From IMG/VR virus record IMGVR_UViG_3300011116_001007: a DNA stretch of 64,000 nt. One strand, given 5' to 3'. Source of the stretch: a virus (lineage: Duplodnaviria > Caudoviricetes). Position numbers and translations under genes: made by a program. The notes below the pieces were generated by a model. It was given only the letters and a program-made list of their open reading frames with translations, made no database searches and had not been told where the DNA came from. Shown piece after piece: positions 45,689 to 55,041 of this stretch (position 1 is its first letter; each line of letters starts with the position of its first letter).

Positions 45689-46117
45689 TTAGAAGTCCTC
45701 GGTGATCAATTCTAAATCAGTTAACCGTCCTGAATCTTCTTTGTTGTACCTTACGCTACCACCATAATAACCGTTGTGGCTGTTACGCACTTCAAGGTCA
45801 ATGTAGCCACGGTTGGTGCGGATAGTCCAGAACGCATCTTGTACCACTTCGCATCCATCTTCGTCGCTGCGATTGTCGCCCCAGCCCTTGTCCTCCACAG
45901 CCAGCACTTCTACCCCGCGCAACAGGTCAAAGCTGTTGCCCTCGCCTAAGATATTTACGCCAGTCACATGGTTGAACCATACAGAATTGCAGCAGTCATT
46001 TTCAGTGTCAAAACGATAGCGACGCCCAGAGATGTCACGAAACACCAGGCTCCACTTGTCGTTGCCTATGAACAAGCCATTGATGCGCTTGCCTACTAAT
46101 ACATTAAATTCACTCAT
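45689..46117 (-). CDS. Hypothetical protein (DCC...HNGYYG)
   Basis: 142-aa ORF with AAGGA SD. Confidence 0.65.
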   Translation of the reverse strand: MSEFNVLVGKRINGLFIGNDKWSLVFRDISGRRYRFDTENDCCNSVWFNHVTGVNILGEGNSFDLLRGVEVLAVEDKGWGDNRSDEDGCEVVQDAFWTIRTNRGYIDLEVRNSHNGYYGGSVRYNKEDSGRLTDLELITEDF

Positions 46118-47539: not shown

Positions 47540-48451
47540 TTAGTTTTCCAAATAGTCGGGTAGATTGTTATCTCTAGCCCAGCGATTGTACGCATCAACA
47601 CACTGCACAAAATTTATCACAATCTGCCTCTTGTCCGCCGGAGTGGTAGATTTGATAGGAATGGTATCAAGCATGACTTGATCACTGCACATGATTGACA
47701 ATGTGTTATCAATTGCCTCAACGGCCGAAATCATGTCTGCATCAAATTCTGGATCAATGTTTTTGCTAATCTCATAATGGTACTGTGTGTACTCGGCAAT
47801 ACTGATGCCATATTTTTGTTTGATTGTTTGTTGGGTGGGAAAATATCGGCACAGCACTGCATCAATATCACTTGACAACTCTTCGTACAACAACGGAACA
47901 AATCCGGGAAATGTGTTACTTAACCAATTGCGATAGTCGAGATATCGTTGTGATTGTTGTATAACAATATCTGTGTCAACTTCAAATCTTTTATCTCCAT
48001 ACAAGCGCACACGATCTTTGGCACTGTGTACGTTGTTGATCTGCTGTGATGCCGGGCGGTCAGTGCAGCGTCGCACAGCATAACTCAATGCATAATCAAA
48101 AATATTGTCTCGTATGCTACCAAACACTGTGAAATTATTGCGTAAGTATTCTGTAAATAATTCTTGTTGTGATTTGGTTTCGCTGCGATTCAGCCAATGG
48201 TCATAGGCCAATCGCACCAGTACAGGATTAGCACTGGATGACAACAACCCAGACAACTCATCAAAACTCTGTGTATTGACGTCGGCCCATTTTTTTATCA
48301 AATAGCCTTGCTCCCCAACACCTATTCCATTTAGCAATTCATGCGGATTGACAAGATTAGGTTGTATCAGTTCTCTAATCCAGAAAGTGGCTGCTCTTTG
48401 AAAATAAGTAGACCCTGATCCAAATGATGCAATTAACAAAACGTTTTTCAT
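47540..48451 (-). CDS. Sulfotransferase-fold-like protein (tentative)
   Basis: N-terminal FGSGSTYFQ resembles a PSB loop; RDN and LLYEEL motifs. Confidence 0.4.
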   Translation of the reverse strand: MKNVLLIASFGSGSTYFQRAATFWIRELIQPNLVNPHELLNGIGVGEQGYLIKKWADVNTQSFDELSGLLSSSANPVLVRLAYDHWLNRSETKSQQELFTEYLRNNFTVFGSIRDNIFDYALSYAVRRCTDRPASQQINNVHSAKDRVRLYGDKRFEVDTDIVIQQSQRYLDYRNWLSNTFPGFVPLLYEELSSDIDAVLCRYFPTQQTIKQKYGISIAEYTQYHYEISKNIDPEFDADMISAVEAIDNTLSIMCSDQVMLDTIPIKSTTPADKRQIVINFVQCVDAYNRWARDNNLPDYLEN

Positions 48452-49344
48452 TCGTAAATTTTTCTCAAAGTGTTTTGGGCTGAGATTGGTATCAAGTCTT
48501 GATACGATATCTTTACATCATGAGACAAACACAGGAGGGCCAAGTCTCGTGCTCGTGCCCGGGTGCTGTTGTTTTCCAATGACTGCCCTAGTATTATTTC
48601 AACTAAGAAATCATGCTGAATCAGTGCATCGGGATGTGGGTCAGAGTGTACACATTCTAAATATTCTTGTGTACACTGCCGAGCAGTCTTGTACTCCCAT
48701 AGTCCTTGATAAGATTTTGGATCCTGTGGATCCTTTGGTGGCATAAAAAACCGGTTCCAGTCAATAAGAGACAACAGATTGGAAACTGCTGGAATCTTTA
48801 ATATTTCACTTGCAGTGTTCAATTCAATTGAGGAAAGTTGATTGCAACTATCCCAACGATATTTCCAGGAATCAATGGTCACAGTAGGCCTAACATCAAA
48901 CCAAGGATTTTGCCAAAACACCATGTGATAACGACACCCAATCTGATTCAACAGATGTTGGATTTGGTATATGGTAGAAAAATTATCCACGATCATGTGT
49001 GTAAGACTTGTTTCGTGATCAGGGTGTGTGCGATATAATCCGCGCCAGGGCACTGGAGAGCATTCTAGTCTTCCAGCAGCTGGAAAGAATCCTTGACAAT
49101 CGTGCTGATCAACCCAGTCTTGGTCGTACCATGTTGTGACACGATTGCTGCCACTCAGCATGATGATCACAGTATCGTCCTGGGTGATATCTTTTGATCT
49201 TGACAACAGTTCCCAATACTGTGTTTGATTGCTGCGTCCGGGCCAGGCCAGGTTGATAACAGTGTCTGTGGAATATTCGCTCAACCAATCGCTCCAGGTA
49301 TGCCAATACCATTTTGTAAAACTACATCCTAATGTATAAATCAT
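48448..49344 (-). CDS. SGNH-like protein
   Basis: Start MIYTLGCSFT at 49344; NLAWPGRSN; C-terminal DPHP. Confidence 0.55.
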   Translation of the reverse strand: MIYTLGCSFTKWYWHTWSDWLSEYSTDTVINLAWPGRSNQTQYWELLSRSKDITQDDTVIIMLSGSNRVTTWYDQDWVDQHDCQGFFPAAGRLECSPVPWRGLYRTHPDHETSLTHMIVDNFSTIYQIQHLLNQIGCRYHMVFWQNPWFDVRPTVTIDSWKYRWDSCNQLSSIELNTASEILKIPAVSNLLSLIDWNRFFMPPKDPQDPKSYQGLWEYKTARQCTQEYLECVHSDPHPDALIQHDFLVEIILGQSLENNSTRARARDLALLCLSHDVKISYQDLIPISAQNTLRKIYE

Positions 49345-49358
49345 AATGAACTGTCTTT

Positions 49359-49433
49359 TGGTAGCCGGTGATGGTTTCGAACCATCGACCCTCGCCTTAT
49401 CAAGACGATGCTCTCCCCCTGAGCTAACCGGCC
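49359..49433 (-). tRNA. tRNA-Ile(GAT)
   Basis: tcgtc-ttGATaa-ggcga, CCA. Confidence 0.93.
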
Positions 49434-49570
49434 ATGATAATATATAGGTGCTCTCTGCGGCGCTTGAATCCACGGTAGCCCTGCTCTTCCTGGCACTTCT
49501 TCACACGCCGCGGGCTAGTGAAGGTTGGTGTTGTTCCAGTGTAGCTACTACAGAAAGCATTTATATGATA

Positions 49571-49659
49571 ACCATATGGAAACACACTAAAAGTAATCTA
49601 ACATACAAGAGCGCCGTGCGAACGTATGCTAAAAGGTATCTAATGTGTTTGCATATGGT
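49571..49659 (-). repeat. 18-bp-stem hairpin cassette 1 (ACCATAT.x.AAACACA family)
   Basis: Arms 49571-49588 and 49642-49659; one mismatch at stem position 9. Confidence 0.75.
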
Positions 49660-50551
49660 GAAAGGACTGAGAATACATCCTCTCCAACAACACCTCGGAC
49701 ATTATTGTACACCTTGCGAGTATACTTTCTTCCGACTTCCACCCGGCCCTATTTCTAGGTATCCTGGTCTGCTGTCAGCATCGCCGTTTAGAGACAGGCA
49801 GTAGTCTTGACGCTGTATGCTATTCTACGCTTTCTATTCCGTTGACCTTGCGAGCCATTCAAGTGCGCTAACACCTTACGAAACTTCCTGCATAAACTAA
49901 TGTCACCTTGCGAGCTTCATTAGACTTGGTTCTCTTGCGAGCCAAGTATTAGATGCTTTTCACATACAACCGAGTCAGTCTTTGCGTTTTAATCGTTAGA
50001 AGGAGTTGAACCTTCAGTCTATTTCTTAAAAGGAAATCGGCCTACCATTAGCCTATAACTGAACCTACTGCGATGTGCTGACTCAGTTGCTGCATACTCT
50101 TTTGGAATACACAATACAACACACCACGTACCTTTTGTCTTGCGAACTACTCAGTCGTCTTTTGCGATCGGTGTGTCCCCGCCTTTCGACAGACCCACTA
50201 ACCACTCAAACTGCATACGAGCCCTTGGGTGCAACCCCTCGGACAAATACGCTACCCTTTCTCATACTAATTAACTGGACTGGTTTAGTTGTGAAGTCAG
50301 CACCACCTGTTACTTTCCATCGACTCAAGTTCCCCTTGCGGGCTTGTAAATCAACGTTCTTTCCACAACATCCAGCGTCATTGTTACAACCACCGGTCTT
50401 ATCAGTGATCGCTACCTCACGGTAGTGAGCAGGCTTGCTTAAACGAACTATCTCTAGCGGAGTTATGTAGGCATACCTCCTTTGGCTGTGTCACCACAGT
50501 TATTCTTCATAAACCAGCAAGCTGGCTTATAGGACGTTAAACCGCCCTTGA
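49657..50551 (-). ncRNA. ~900-nt large structured RNA, GOLLD-like candidate
   Basis: No credible CDS; own promoter; six C-GCAA-G tetraloops plus other GNRA loops; 5'/3' helix AAGGGC/GTCCTT; embedded tRNA module. Confidence 0.65.
49992..50062 (-). tRNA. tRNA-Lys(TTT)-like module embedded in the large RNA, no encoded CCA
   Basis: ATTTC-ctTTTaa-GAAAT, GAAGG-ttcaact-CCTTC, D arm with AATGGTA; acceptor stem has a bulge. Confidence 0.6.
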
Positions 50552-50557
50552 AATCTT

Positions 50558-50586
50558 ATTGTAGCATCAAAGTTGATCCTTGTCAA
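50558..50586 (-). promoter_or_regulatory. sigma70 promoter TTGACA-17-TACAAT driving the large RNA
   Basis: -35 50586-50581, -10 50563-50558. Confidence 0.75.
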
Positions 50587-50596
50587 CTTGAGTTTT

Positions 50597-50680
50597 ACCA
50601 TATAGAAACACACTAGCCTGCAGGACTACTAATAGCTCACGGGTACGCCGCTACTACTAGGTAATGTGTTTTTATATGGT
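50597..50680 (-). repeat. 18-bp-stem hairpin cassette 2
   Basis: 5' arm starts with the ACCA of tRNA-Lys(TTT); mismatch at position 9. Confidence 0.75.
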
Positions 50681-53375: not shown

Positions 53376-53451
53376 TGGTGCCCCAGGGGAGACTCGAACT
53401 CCCAGAATTTGGTTTCTAAGACCAACATGGCTACCGTTACATCACCGGGGC
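53376..53451 (-). tRNA. tRNA-Leu(TAG), short variable loop
   Basis: ttggt-ctTAGaa-accaa, CCA; no variable arm. Confidence 0.85.
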
Positions 53452-53456
53452 TGATA

Positions 53457-53679
53457 TTGAATTTGCAAGTAGTAGCACCACACTATTGCTACCATTCCCC
53501 CGAATTAACAAGCTCGAGCGGGGTTCGGTACGTCACTTGGGATACAGGTCCAGTACAGTCTCCGTTGCAGACCTCCGCAGTTGCCCGCGGGTGGGAGTTG
53601 AACCCATTAACCTTCTACTATAAAGTACCTTCGAAGAATACAGTATAGCGTGACTTTCTCTTGCTGACACTTACAAAAC
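53457..53679 (-). ncRNA. T-arm-containing ncRNA family, copy A
   Basis: Shares five sequence blocks and the terminal stem with 54495..54680. Confidence 0.65.
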
Positions 53680-53771
53680 TGGGCCTCTGAGAGTGGAATT
53701 GAACCACCAAGGTTTTTGGAACCTTTTTGACCTACTAGTAAGGACGACTTTACCGATTCGTCTACTCAGAG
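53680..53771 (-). tRNA. Degenerate type-II tRNA-like element with central CTA (amber-like) triplet
   Basis: CTCTGAG/CTCAGAG acceptor, GAC-gaatcggtaaa-GTC D arm, loop taCTAgt, AAGGTT/AACCTT variable arm, GGTGG-ttcaatt-CCACT T arm, CCA. Confidence 0.55.
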
Positions 53772-53777
53772 ATAACT

Positions 53778-53851
53778 TGGTGTGTGGGGGTGGGTTCGCT
53801 CACCCTTTCACTGACATACATCAGCACCGTCACTAATCCGGCTCTCACACA
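53778..53851 (-). ncRNA. tRNA-shaped mimic with degenerate loops, CCA end
   Basis: TGTGTG/CACACA acceptor, GCCG/CGGT, GCTGA/TCAGT and GGGTG/CACCC arms; no TTC. Confidence 0.5.
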
Positions 53852-53856
53852 TAAAA

Positions 53857-53899
53857 GGTGGATAACAGATGCCGTAGCATCCGCTTCTCCATAACTTGG
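53857..53899 (-). repeat. 43-bp direct repeat, also at 54683-54725 (2 mismatches)
   Basis: GGTGGATAACAGATGCCG(T/C)AGCA(T/C)CCGCTTCTCCATAACTTGG; follows tRNA-Asp and tRNA-Glu respectively. Confidence 0.85.
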
Positions 53900-53971
53900 C
53901 GGTCTCAAGGGGTAACGATCCCCTTCTTCAACAGTGACAGTGTTGTGTGCGTCCATGAACACTTTGAGACC
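53897..53971 (-). tRNA. tRNA-Asp(GTC), atypical T loop ATCGTTA
   Basis: caaca-ctGTCac-tgttg, GCCA. Confidence 0.85.
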
Positions 53972-54165
53972 AAATAAGGACAAGCTACTGGTTTCCACAC
54001 CAGCCCTTGATTGAGCGGTTACTCTGTCCATCTTTTTTATCTGGTATCTGTGTGCAGAAAGATAACTGCCTATCAGATTCAGGATTGCTCCGCTAACGGT
54101 CTTCTGCCACCGGACCTCTATCGCTAGTCAAACGCTACTTTAACGAAAGTAGTAACGGGATTCTT

Positions 54166-54280
54166 ACCATATAGGAACACACTACGTATCTTAGTCACGT
54201 GTAGTTTTGGAGGGCTACACTACAGACCCAAATAGTTAGACCGCGAATCTAACCCAACCTGGAGTATGTTCTTATATGGC
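54166..54280 (-). repeat. 18-bp-stem hairpin cassette 3
   Basis: Arms 54166-54183 and 54263-54279; 5' arm begins with the CCA of the upstream tRNA mimic. Confidence 0.7.
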
Positions 54281-54353
54281 AAACTCATTGCGGACAGGAT
54301 TCGAACCTGCATCACCCACTAAGGGCATCCTAACCACTAGAAGACCGCGAGTT
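54277..54353 (-). ncRNA. tRNA mimic with truncated anticodon arm and bulged, extended acceptor stem
   Basis: D loop CTAGTGGTT, GCCC-ttagt-GGGT, GCAGG-ttcgaat-CCTGT, AACTC-GCGG/CCGC-aat-GAGTT, GCCA. Confidence 0.55.
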
Positions 54354-54401
54354 CCTGAGGGCAATTACTCCCCAGCACGGATGCTACCTGCAGATAACAT
54401 T

Positions 54402-54484
54402 ACCATATAGGAACACACTTTAGTAAGCCCTACGCATCCGACAAAGTTGTCACGCATCCAAAGCAAAATGTGTTTTTATATAAT
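54402..54484 (-). repeat. 18-bp-stem hairpin cassette 4
   Basis: ATTATATAAAAACACATT / AGTGTGTTCCTATATGGT, G-U pairs at the base. Confidence 0.7.
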
Positions 54485-54494
54485 ACCATATAAA

Positions 54495-54680
54495 TTGAAT
54501 TTGTAAGTAGCAGCACCTCACTCATTGCTACCATTCTACCTGTATTTTCTGTGAAGCCGCGGACAGGATAGAGGTACGTAGTAATAGTAGCTACTTAGCA
54601 GTTGCCATGTTGCCGGACTCGAACCGTTGCCTCATAAGGTTTTCGACGCCTTACTTTCACTACATCTACACTTACAAAAC
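54495..54680 (-). ncRNA. T-arm-containing ncRNA family, copy B
   Basis: See copy A; T arm CGG-TTCGAGT-CCG. Confidence 0.65.
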
Positions 54681-54722
54681 TTGGTGGATAACAGATGCCG
54701 CAGCACCCGCTTCTCCATAACT

Positions 54723-54797
54723 TGGTAGAGCATAGCGGAGTCGAACCGCTCTTAGTGGACTGAAAACCCACTGTCCTAACCGATAGACGAATGCTCC
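54723..54797 (-). tRNA. tRNA-Glu(TTC)
   Basis: gtggg-ttTTCag-tccac, CCA. Confidence 0.9.
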
Positions 54798-54803
54798 ATG
54801 ATT

Positions 54804-55041
54804 CACTATATGAAAACACAATTATACAGGAACTTTGCTGATAAAATCTAATCTAGCTATGATTAGACCAATCGCCGTCATTACTGCCTACCTGTTTCGT
54901 CTTCCTCATCTTCATGGCCTAAGCCACTGATTCAGCATCTTGTAAGTGGAGGAGTAGCCAGCCACGGCGGGGCTCAAACCCATAATCCTATCACTCACCT
55001 AACGATGTAGGTAACCTGTATAATTGTGTTTACATATAGTG
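54804..55041 (-). repeat. Hairpin cassette 5 with 27-bp arms enclosing 184 nt
   Basis: CACTATATG(A/T)AAACACAATTATACAGG inverted repeat at 54804-54830 and 55015-55041. Confidence 0.8.

Follow-up and report, generated by a model that had tools for sequence, protein, structure and literature searches.

Two copies of a structured noncoding RNA lie in the tRNA island of the viral record IMGVR_UViG_3300011116_001007 (Duplodnaviria; Caudoviricetes), in the 64,000-nt stretch of its DNA analysed here (the window), and as far as the available tools can tell they belong to a widespread, undescribed RNA family of large freshwater (lake) phages. The explanation that best accounts for the data as a whole, to which we assign a probability of about 0.55, is that of a new structured RNA which would be released by tRNA processing, would dimerise with itself and would act as a scaffold or a decoy. 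The IMG/VR viral contig to which the window belongs has 102,964 bases and is estimated by CheckV to be ~30% complete.

Copy A (53457-53679, 223 nt) and copy B (54495-54680, 186 nt) are homologous and are both encoded on the minus strand, as are all of their parts described below. From the 5' end they have in common, in this order, the blocks GUUUUGUAAGUGU, GAAAG, a T-arm hairpin (UGGG-UUCAACU-CCCA in copy A and CGG-UUCGAGU-CCG in copy B), ACGUACC and a variable hairpin, and at the 3' end GAAUGGUAGCAAU...GGUGCU.CUACUU(G/A)CAAAUUCAA. Their ends pair over 9 bp (UUUGUAAGU with ACUU(G/A)CAAA), and within the window these two copies are the only places with the complete end motifs of 13 nt and 16 nt. 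A covariance model of the 3' domain (R1) scored 83.6 bits on copy A, which represents a long type of the RNA (A-type), and 75.8 bits on copy B, which represents a short one (B-type). The blocks, their order, the limits of both copies and the paired ends had already been described by a first-pass annotation and were borne out, on the minus strand; the same description missed the conserved pseudoknot and the palindromic loop presented below. It also held that both copies start right after a CCA end without having one of their own: neither copy has its own CCA, and the rest is true of copy A directly, copy B starting 1 nt after a CCACCA.

The view that the two copies constitute a two-member family had to be abandoned. 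A scan of IMG/VR with the 5' motif identified at least 117 stretches and, when both ends were required, at least 88 members with at least 67 distinct sequences in viral contigs; a scan with the 3' motif gave 10 loci. The members are 170-236 nt long and fall into the two types, which can be aligned with each other along the entire 5' end and the 3'-terminal 90-100 nt (48 A-type and 19 B-type among the 67 sequences). About 45 nucleotides of the RNA are nearly invariant; GGCAACUGC, common to copies A and B, is not conserved across the family. The RNA-bearing complete genomes that we examined carry one copy each, and the window has one of each type. Among the GTDB species genomes at least three true members were found, on short (3-24 kb) contigs of metagenome-assembled genomes, two of them from named lakes (Lac Pavin and Umea); these are probably mis-binned phage DNA, and therefore no host could be deduced from them.

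The fold was evaluated by covariation in an alignment of the 67 sequences, using 26 proposed pairs and, as controls, slid partners and 500 shuffles. The 26 pairs were 94.4% paired, against 30-50% when the partners were slid; changes on both sides occurred at 14 of them, and the observed covariation score was reached by none of the 500 shuffles. The covariation on which the first-pass annotation had made its claim of a noncoding RNA depend is thus present. The molecule is closed by P1, formed in copy A by UUUGUAAGU (53669-53677) and ACUUGCAAA (53462-53470) and followed by a conserved unpaired tail, UUCAA (53457-53461). The sequence of P1 is itself under constraint: its 9 pairs are 100% paired in the 67 sequences, are nearly invariant and never show changes on both sides. 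P2 (GUCA, 53665-53668, with UGAC, 53532-53535) is 99% paired, with both-side changes at two pairs (CG, AU and UA at one, AU and GC at the other). A conserved junction, GCAAGAGAAA, occupies positions 53652-53664 together with the 5' strand of P4; the latter, a GUC (53652-53654) placed after GAGAAAG, pairs with a GAC (53548-53550) located just before AAGUAU. This helix forms in 43 of 43 A-types, with a middle pair that is U-A in 31 and A-U in 12. The P3 hairpin (53617-53649) carries an apical palindrome, CUUCGAAG (53629-53636), and its stem covaries among A-types (GCUAUA/UAUAGU vs GCUAGG/CCUAGU). In the 3' domain, the P5 hairpin (53498-53523), whose loop opens with the palindrome GCUCGAGC (53512-53519), a predicted kissing site, and the P6 hairpin (GUAGCA...UGCUAC, 53472-53492) covary as well, the latter with both-side changes at 4 of 5 pairs. 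These elements are tied together by a pseudoknot, in which ACCG just after P2 (53526-53529) pairs with UGGU in the P6 loop (53477-53480); its three core pairs (ACC with the P6 loop) are 97% paired and all three have changes on both sides.

In copy B, the P1 5' strand (54670-54678) and the P2 5' strand (GUAG, 54666-54669) have their partners at 54500-54508 and 54578-54581, respectively, and the place of P4 is occupied by a B-type helix, P2b (GUAGU, 54659-54663, with GCUAC, 54587-54591); pairs 1-4 of this five-pair helix are formed in 19 of 19 B-type sequences and the fifth in 15, and one pair covaries (A-U, U-A, G-U). The P3 hairpin of copy B (UAAGG-CGUCGAAAA-CCUUA, 54635-54653) has a covarying stem (UAAGG/CCUUA vs CAUGG/CCAUG), and the B-type P3 loop retains YCGAAA. 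The pseudoknot is formed by ACCUC (54571-54575) and GAGGU in the P6 loop (54515-54519); the P5 hairpin (54539-54567) bears the loop palindrome CCGCGG (54557-54562), and the P6 hairpin (54510-54531) with the P1 3' strand completes the domain (54500-54531). Two other pairings were tried and dropped: a helix of GAAU, at the P5-P6 junction, with AUUC of the 3' tail, which showed no covariation, and a GUCAC/GUGAC pairing in copy A, which was contradicted by the relatives.

A perfect palindrome of at least 6 nt stands at the start of the P5 loop, at the same place, in all 67 sequences, in the form of 13 different hexamer cores (GCCGGC, UCCGGA, CGGCCG, CUCGAG, CCGCGG, GCGCGC, GGCGCC, GUAUAC, CCCGGG, GCUAGC, GGUACC, GUGCAC and CUGCAG), whereas in 1000 trials of loop shuffling a mean of 13.9 of the 67 sequences, and at most 27, had such a palindrome. 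As a 6-nt palindrome cannot fold on itself, and as it lies off-centre, at the 5' side of a loop of 12-20 nt, the simplest reading is an intermolecular pairing; the pattern thus suggests that two molecules would associate in a kissing-loop homodimer, in the manner of the human immunodeficiency virus type 1 (HIV-1) dimerisation initiation site. The palindromes of copy A (GCUCGAGC) and copy B (CCGCGG) are not complementary to each other, and therefore the two paralogues would form separate homodimers. The P3 apex is also self-complementary in most members (CUUCGAAG, GUUCGAAC, GCUGGCCAGC), and a second self-contact through it is possible, but self-complementarity would equally be seen in a simple hairpin whose loop is UCGA or GGCC.

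Among the 88 members listed, an upstream tRNA predicted by ARAGORN ends 0-4 nt before the first G (G1) of the RNA in 64, with a gap of exactly 1 nt in 58, and these upstream tRNAs are of 15 different identities; in 52 of the 88, a tRNA begins 2-6 nt after the AUUCAA tail. In relatives of ~168 kb, the slot after tRNA-Val(UAC) holds either this RNA or a different short element, or is empty, and the RNA is absent from close relatives with equally large tRNA sets. Because of these flush tRNA flanks and of the presence or absence at the same slot, we take the RNA to be an optional cassette that would be set free by the usual processing of tRNA ends. A cassette-like mobility within the arrays is evident.

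At copy A, a long-arm, CUA-anticodon tRNA (53680-53772, minus strand) has its CCA directly against G1, and on the other side a tRNA-Leu(UAG) (53376-53451, minus strand) begins 5 nt after the AUUCAA tail; an RNase P cut at the start of this tRNA-Leu is likely to make the 3' end of copy A. Copy B is preceded by a tRNA-Glu (54723-54797, minus strand) and by a 41-nt minihelix that ends in CCACCA (54682-54722, minus strand; repeat D8), and it starts 1 nt after the latter. Of note, the CUA-anticodon tRNA, which ARAGORN labels Pyl, carries A in place of U at position 33, and its anticodon stem contains a U-U mismatch; similar CUA tRNAs occur in the related complete genomes G005, G009 and G015. Two elements at 53857-53899 and 54683-54725 (minus strand), the second at the minihelix before copy B, are 95% identical; both are 41-43 nt long and have the form AGUUAUGGAGAAGCGG...CUGUUAUCCACC. 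Each of them follows the CCA of a tRNA (Asp and Glu) and ends in CCACC(A); they look like small CCA-tailed minihelices.

In contrast with the core, the outer module of the RNA is variable. In copy A it comprises the T-arm mimic UGGG-UUCAACU-CCCA (53592-53606) and, according to folding, a stem-loop directly after the T stem (53575-53590) and then a D-like hairpin, GUCU-GCAACGG-AGAC (53558-53572), the last two spanning 53558-53590. From folding, this order of T arm, stem-loop and D-like hairpin would also exist in a subset of A-type relatives; in these and in copy A the D-like hairpin has a GG-containing 7-nt loop (e.g., AUAC-AGUUGGA-GUAU at loci L019 and L073). Copy B has a minimal T-like hairpin of 3 bp (CGG-UUCGAGU-CCG, 54614-54626), and its nearest B-type relatives have UGG-UACGAGU-CCA in its place, or nothing. 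The first-pass annotation had presented the T arm as a feature of the family; it is present in copies A and B, but a canonical T arm, defined as a UUCRANN loop closed by at least 3 bp, was found in 37 of the 67 sequences (30 of 48 A-type and 7 of 19 B-type), in a variable middle module outside the conserved core. Other members carry a loop of the GCGCAAU type or unrelated hairpins there, or have next to no module. For copy A the resemblance to a tRNA is real, though accessory to the conserved core.

In support of the novelty of the family, a search of Rfam 15 with permissive filters and up to an E value of 10 gave no family match at either copy, YrlA and RNase P included, and returned tRNAs, GOLLD, tmRNA and noise; the sole hint was a weak Tymo_tRNA-like match (E 1.7) at the T arm of copy A. 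The structured RNA is therefore absent from Rfam, where the first-pass annotation had proposed to look for a known family. When the 2.5-kb region was compared by BLAST with 50,697 phage records, tRNA genes were all that matched, and the invariant end sequences appeared in no paper that we found, the unnamed candidates of the IMG/VR catalogue of structured RNAs (PMC10690425) being outside this comparison. Words of the stretch were found in 13 RNA-labelled runs, whose samples are lake, freshwater, aquatic or viral. Four runs, each from a different study, contain contigs, 88-99% identical, that cover the interior of copy A (for example 53476-53577, 53501-53586, 53548-53619 and 53592-53680); copy B and several flanks have little or no cover in these contigs, whose depth cannot rank genes. 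This result shows that relatives are present in RNA libraries; the contigs, which possibly contain DNA, say nothing on the ends of the RNA or on its level.

Taken as a whole, these data can be arranged in the following model. The RNA would be transcribed with the tRNAs and freed by tRNA processing, as its position suggests, since a gap of 0-1 nt separates it from the upstream CCA and the downstream tRNA usually begins 2-6 nt past its tail. It would then adopt the compact core that the covariation defines, with the invariant P1-P2 helix, the purine-rich junctions (GAGAAAG and AAGUAU), P4 or P2b, P5, P6 and the pseudoknot. The GC-rich palindrome of the P5 loop would pair with that of a second molecule to give a kissing-loop homodimer, and the self-complementary P3 apex could add a second contact, leading to larger assemblies. 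Such a dimer might display a swappable outer module, a tRNA-elbow mimic in A and a small T-like hairpin in B, and an abundant RNA of this kind could act, independently of the Ro60-like protein discussed below, as the scaffold or decoy of a factor recognising the tRNA shape or the invariant P1.

Several observations weigh against this model. Minimum free energy folding did not place the single copies above their shuffles (z -0.9 and -0.7), and therefore the structural case rests on the comparison of sequences and on covariation. The T-like module is missing in 30 of the 67 sequences and is therefore not the core function. The dimer is predicted from sequence alone; the data from the RNA runs are contigs that may include DNA and in which transcript ends are not visible; and the role as scaffold or decoy is a guess. 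Finally, no partner protein was found: when the gene content of six RNA-bearing and two RNA-lacking genomes of ~168 kb was compared, the sole perfect profile was that of a tetraspanin-like membrane protein, and nothing related to RNA emerged from this comparison, which is weak with two negatives.

Among the closest known systems are GOLLD and ROOL (RF02032 and RF03087), whose RNA-RNA self-association has been solved and gives rise to cages (Kretsch et al. 2025, PMC12286853). Like them, the RNA described here is phage-borne, lies in or beside tRNA islands and has swappable tRNA-like inserts; their self-association is solved, while that of our RNA is only predicted. It is, on the other hand, 4-5 times smaller and has no sequence or model match to either (within the window GOLLD was found only at 49664-50127, and ROOL was not found), and its predicted contact is a palindromic kissing loop of 6-8 bp, for which a dimer is the minimum, instead of a multi-contact cage. 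The HIV-1 dimerisation initiation site is a mechanistic analogue only. It likewise has a 6-nt GC-rich loop palindrome that varies among lineages and yet stays self-complementary, and two of the palindromes of our family, GCGCGC and GUGCAC, are also used there; however, its origin and context are unrelated, and its loop has 9 nt as compared with the 12-20 nt of the P5 loop, where the palindrome is at the 5' side.

An extension of the parallel with GOLLD and ROOL is an assembly made only of RNA, in which P5 dimers would be linked into rings or chains through P3 and would expose multiple tRNA-elbow mimics, as a compact counterpart of these cages; it could be a decoy, for instance one that attracts host nucleases or enzymes recognising the tRNA shape. 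We hold this extension as tentative and rather doubtful. If it were true, the variation of the palindrome might be an address code that keeps the paralogues apart. Phage tRNA islands hold many structured RNAs, and the cages of GOLLD and ROOL have been demonstrated only recently. At 170-236 nt, the RNA reported here, which is widespread in lake phages and occurs in the RNA libraries of several lake studies, is short enough for direct structural and biochemical work, and its palindrome, found in every member examined and in 13 versions overall, makes a clear and testable prediction of specific self-pairing. Knowing what the dimer binds might show in what way large phages handle or protect their stock of tRNAs.

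The first-pass annotation had considered an RNA similar to the bacterial Y RNAs, and a Y-RNA-like partnership, in which P1 would bind a phage DUF2828/DUF7788 protein or the host Rsr while the outer module recruits other factors, is one alternative. When the open reading frames of 86 RNA loci were clustered, a DUF2828/DUF7788 protein of 470-530 aa was found in 18 of them, 1-10 kb downstream and on the same strand. Its gene lies inside tRNA arrays, with tRNAs on both sides (e.g., L126:9956-11422 and its homologues, alignment A2), and at least 564 stretches of viral contigs encode a relative. An AlphaFold model of this protein (mean predicted local distance difference test score, pLDDT, 65) gave full-length Foldseek matches to Ro60 structures only; the top 13 hits, with E values from 1e-7 to 5e-4, included the Ro60 of Thermus phage phiLo, Deinococcus Rsr, and the Xenopus and human Ro60. 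By this structural comparison, the protein appears to have the Ro60 fold (TROVE plus vWA). Conversely, the RNA was found upstream, on the same strand, in 24 of 80 loci that we fetched with the Ro60-like protein.

YrlA RNAs are defined by the order T arm, stem-loop and D arm, and the motif GNCGAAN0-1G near the 5' end is the proposed Ro60 contact of Y RNAs (Chen et al. 2014, PMC4201824). Our RNA resembles YrlA in its paired 5' and 3' ends, with P1 and P2 giving 13 bp that are 99-100% paired in the 67 sequences, and, in copy A and a subset of its relatives, in the order of the tRNA-like module; it likewise occurs in phages with tRNA arrays, a tmRNA and, often, a Ro60-fold protein encoded in the same island. 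In contrast to YrlA, it is twice as long, its tRNA-like module is optional, with only a 3-bp T-like hairpin in copy B, and its pseudoknot, its P5 and P6 hairpins and its palindromic loop have no counterpart in Y RNAs. The Ro60-contact motif is absent from the 5' strand, which has the invariant GUUUUGUAAGUGU; YCGAA was found only in the P3 loop, and the full motif in some B-types only. The YrlA model (RF02553; gathering score 69 bits) matched neither copy, whether in the search of all Rfam up to an E value of 10 or directly on the contig; on five related records it matched neighbouring tRNAs and one separate YrlA-like RNA (34 bits), and never the element itself. Another trait of YrlA, a same-strand Ro60 gene within ~4 kb, is lacking in the contig, and in the family as a whole the link is partial, with the 18 of 86 and 24 of 80 loci mentioned above.

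The first-pass annotation had also suggested looking for a Ro60 or TROVE protein in the phage. Searches for TROVE, DUF2828 and DUF7788 found nothing in the 103-kb contig (~30% complete), and two unannotated open reading frames of the island (47540-49473) were unrelated to the Ro60-like profile. More directly, among the RNA-bearing genomes at least 96% complete, two of five (G005 and G009) have no A2-like, TROVE or DUF7788 gene, and among the equally complete genomes with the Ro60-like gene, five of six (G021-G024 and G026) have no match to the covariance model of the RNA 3' domain. Because complete genomes hold either one without the other, the RNA is independent of the phage Ro60-like gene.

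Other elements of the related arrays follow this gene more closely. In related phages we observed cassettes of the form AGUUUUAGGAU...CAGCAA / AUCCUGUU with unrelated cargo, at L208:1487-1610 (G013:86910-87037) and ~75 other loci. In many loci a cassette of one type precedes the Ro60-like gene by 250-500 nt. Stem cassettes of this kind (AGGAU...CAGCAA / AUCCUGUU, with variable cargo) were present in 7 of 9 records with the Ro60-like gene and in 0 of 9 without it; one cassette in a related array is the YrlA-like RNA matched by RF02553. We found no publication on them, and the contig of copies A and B has no cassettes with the CAGCAA handle. They resemble our RNA in occurring in the same arrays, in the same A-GUUUU start after a tRNA CCA, in a variable cargo that can include tRNA-like parts, and in a closing stem followed by (C/U)AGCAA, which A-type members also have; they differ from it in the sequence of the stem and in lacking the conserved 3' domain with pseudoknot and palindrome. 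As A-types share the A-GUUUU start and the (C/U)AGCAA, a distant kinship with these cassettes, or an occasional use of the same Ro60-like protein, may exist. The Y-RNA-like partnership thus draws on the end-paired stem, on the YrlA order in copy A and its subset, on the (C/U)AGCAA of A-types and on the Ro60-fold gene in the islands of many relatives, but it is contradicted by the unmatched YrlA model, by a contig without Ro60-fold gene or cassettes, by genomes in which RNA and gene occur apart, by B-types (copy B among them) without CAGCAA and without the full tRNA-like module, and by structural parts that Y RNAs lack. We consider it unlikely. Telling the RNA apart from the Ro60-linked cassettes narrows down where the true partners of the phage Ro60-like proteins should be sought.

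Three other explanations were weighed against the self-dimerising scaffold or decoy. The strongly conserved unpaired nucleotides of the core, the pseudoknot and a 5' end that precisely abuts the CCA could point to a catalytic RNA serving the tRNA array, either a mini RNase P-like RNA or one that cleaves itself at its 5' edge beside the CCA; GAGAAAGUC would presumably correspond to the RNase P CR-I, and GAAUGG to J18/2, which it resembles. Nevertheless, no model of RNase P (bacterial A or B, archaeal or type T), hatchet, hepatitis delta virus-like or other ribozyme matched up to an E value of 10, and the topology differs from that of P4 in RNase P, a long-range helix in which the strand after GAGGAAAG pairs with a strand 3' of P2: the helix following GAGAAAG is nested inside P2, its GAC lying 5' of the P2 3' strand, and the only pseudoknot links the P2 3' flank with the P6 loop. 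The RNase P reading was rejected on these models and on this helix topology, and that of a self-cleaving ribozyme on the absence of a model match and on the unusable tRNA end after a cut at the CCA, where self-cleavage would leave a cyclic phosphate that disables the tRNA. The absence of the RNA from close relatives with equally large tRNA sets also argues against a catalytic role, which we regard as very improbable.

This same presence and absence among close relatives, the 15 different upstream tRNAs and the fact that the invariant ends are inverted repeats would fit a selfish DNA cassette similar to a miniature inverted-repeat transposable element (MITE), whose ends would be terminal inverted repeats and which would hop between tRNA junctions. 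Against it, the internal helices and the pseudoknot show compensatory changes, the palindrome persists in 13 versions, the element is covered by contigs from RNA libraries, and there is no linked transposase. Compensatory change in the interior implies selection on the RNA and not on the DNA ends, so that a MITE as the sole explanation is largely refuted and has, in our estimation, the slenderest chance of those considered; mobility could be an added trait. A passive structured spacer, which would aid the ordered processing or the stability of the tRNA precursor and would have no role after its release, agrees with the flush position between tRNAs and with the lack of a partner; it would, however, have no need for ~45 nearly invariant nucleotides, a pseudoknot and a self-complementary loop, and the spacers at most tRNA junctions of the same arrays measure 2-10 nt. 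This makes it quite improbable.

Both copies are located in an island on the minus strand (~43.9-58.6 kb of the window) with 33 tRNAs and a permuted tmRNA identified by ARAGORN; the GOLLD RNA recognised by Rfam lies 3.3 kb from the studied element. Inside the island and on the same strand are a gene for an RNase H-like protein (PF04308; 45204-45674) and a DUF7448 gene (45689-46117), both of which are found again close to the RNA in relatives without being specific to it. In the islands of relatives these two genes recur in the company of a metallophosphatase, a dual-specificity phosphatase and a 2-oxoglutarate-Fe(II) (2OG-Fe(II)) oxygenase, a grouping that hints at an RNA processing or repair set.

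Several other elements of the arrays lack an annotation. Between the minihelix-like element and the CUA tRNA, the segment 53773-53856 (minus strand) is tRNA-like and received no call from ARAGORN; GUGUGUG...CACACACCA gives it a pairing like that of an acceptor stem, and its T-like loop is unusual in having 8 nt. The segment 54290-54360 (minus strand) is tRNA-like as well, with a GGUUCGAAUCC T arm, a D-arm-like AGUGGUUAGGA and a 5-nt anticodon-like loop, and was called neither by ARAGORN nor by Rfam. Upstream of tRNA-Asp, the gene-free segment 53972-54170 (minus strand) is covered by RNA-library contigs from four studies, some of them very deep, and may be another abundant structured RNA. The repeated arms UAGUGUGUU(U/C)CUAUAUGGUAA and ACCAUAU(G/A)NAAACACAUUA (repeat families D3 and D7), found at 49559-49659, 50585-50680, 54154-54184, 54390-54484 and 55022-55040, can form long stems that enclose GOLLD and other cargo, and appear to be this phage's version of the stem cassettes of its relatives. 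Finally, two short conserved elements, CAGACCCCGC...GUGCG...CACC and UCGCC(A/U)UGACA...GGCGUACAAUG(U/A)GAUAAGU..., follow the tail of the RNA or a tRNA in related phages (L026, L034, L073, L104, L105, L115, L121, L031, L032, L039, L081, L090, L098 and G026), and may be other small RNAs of the arrays.

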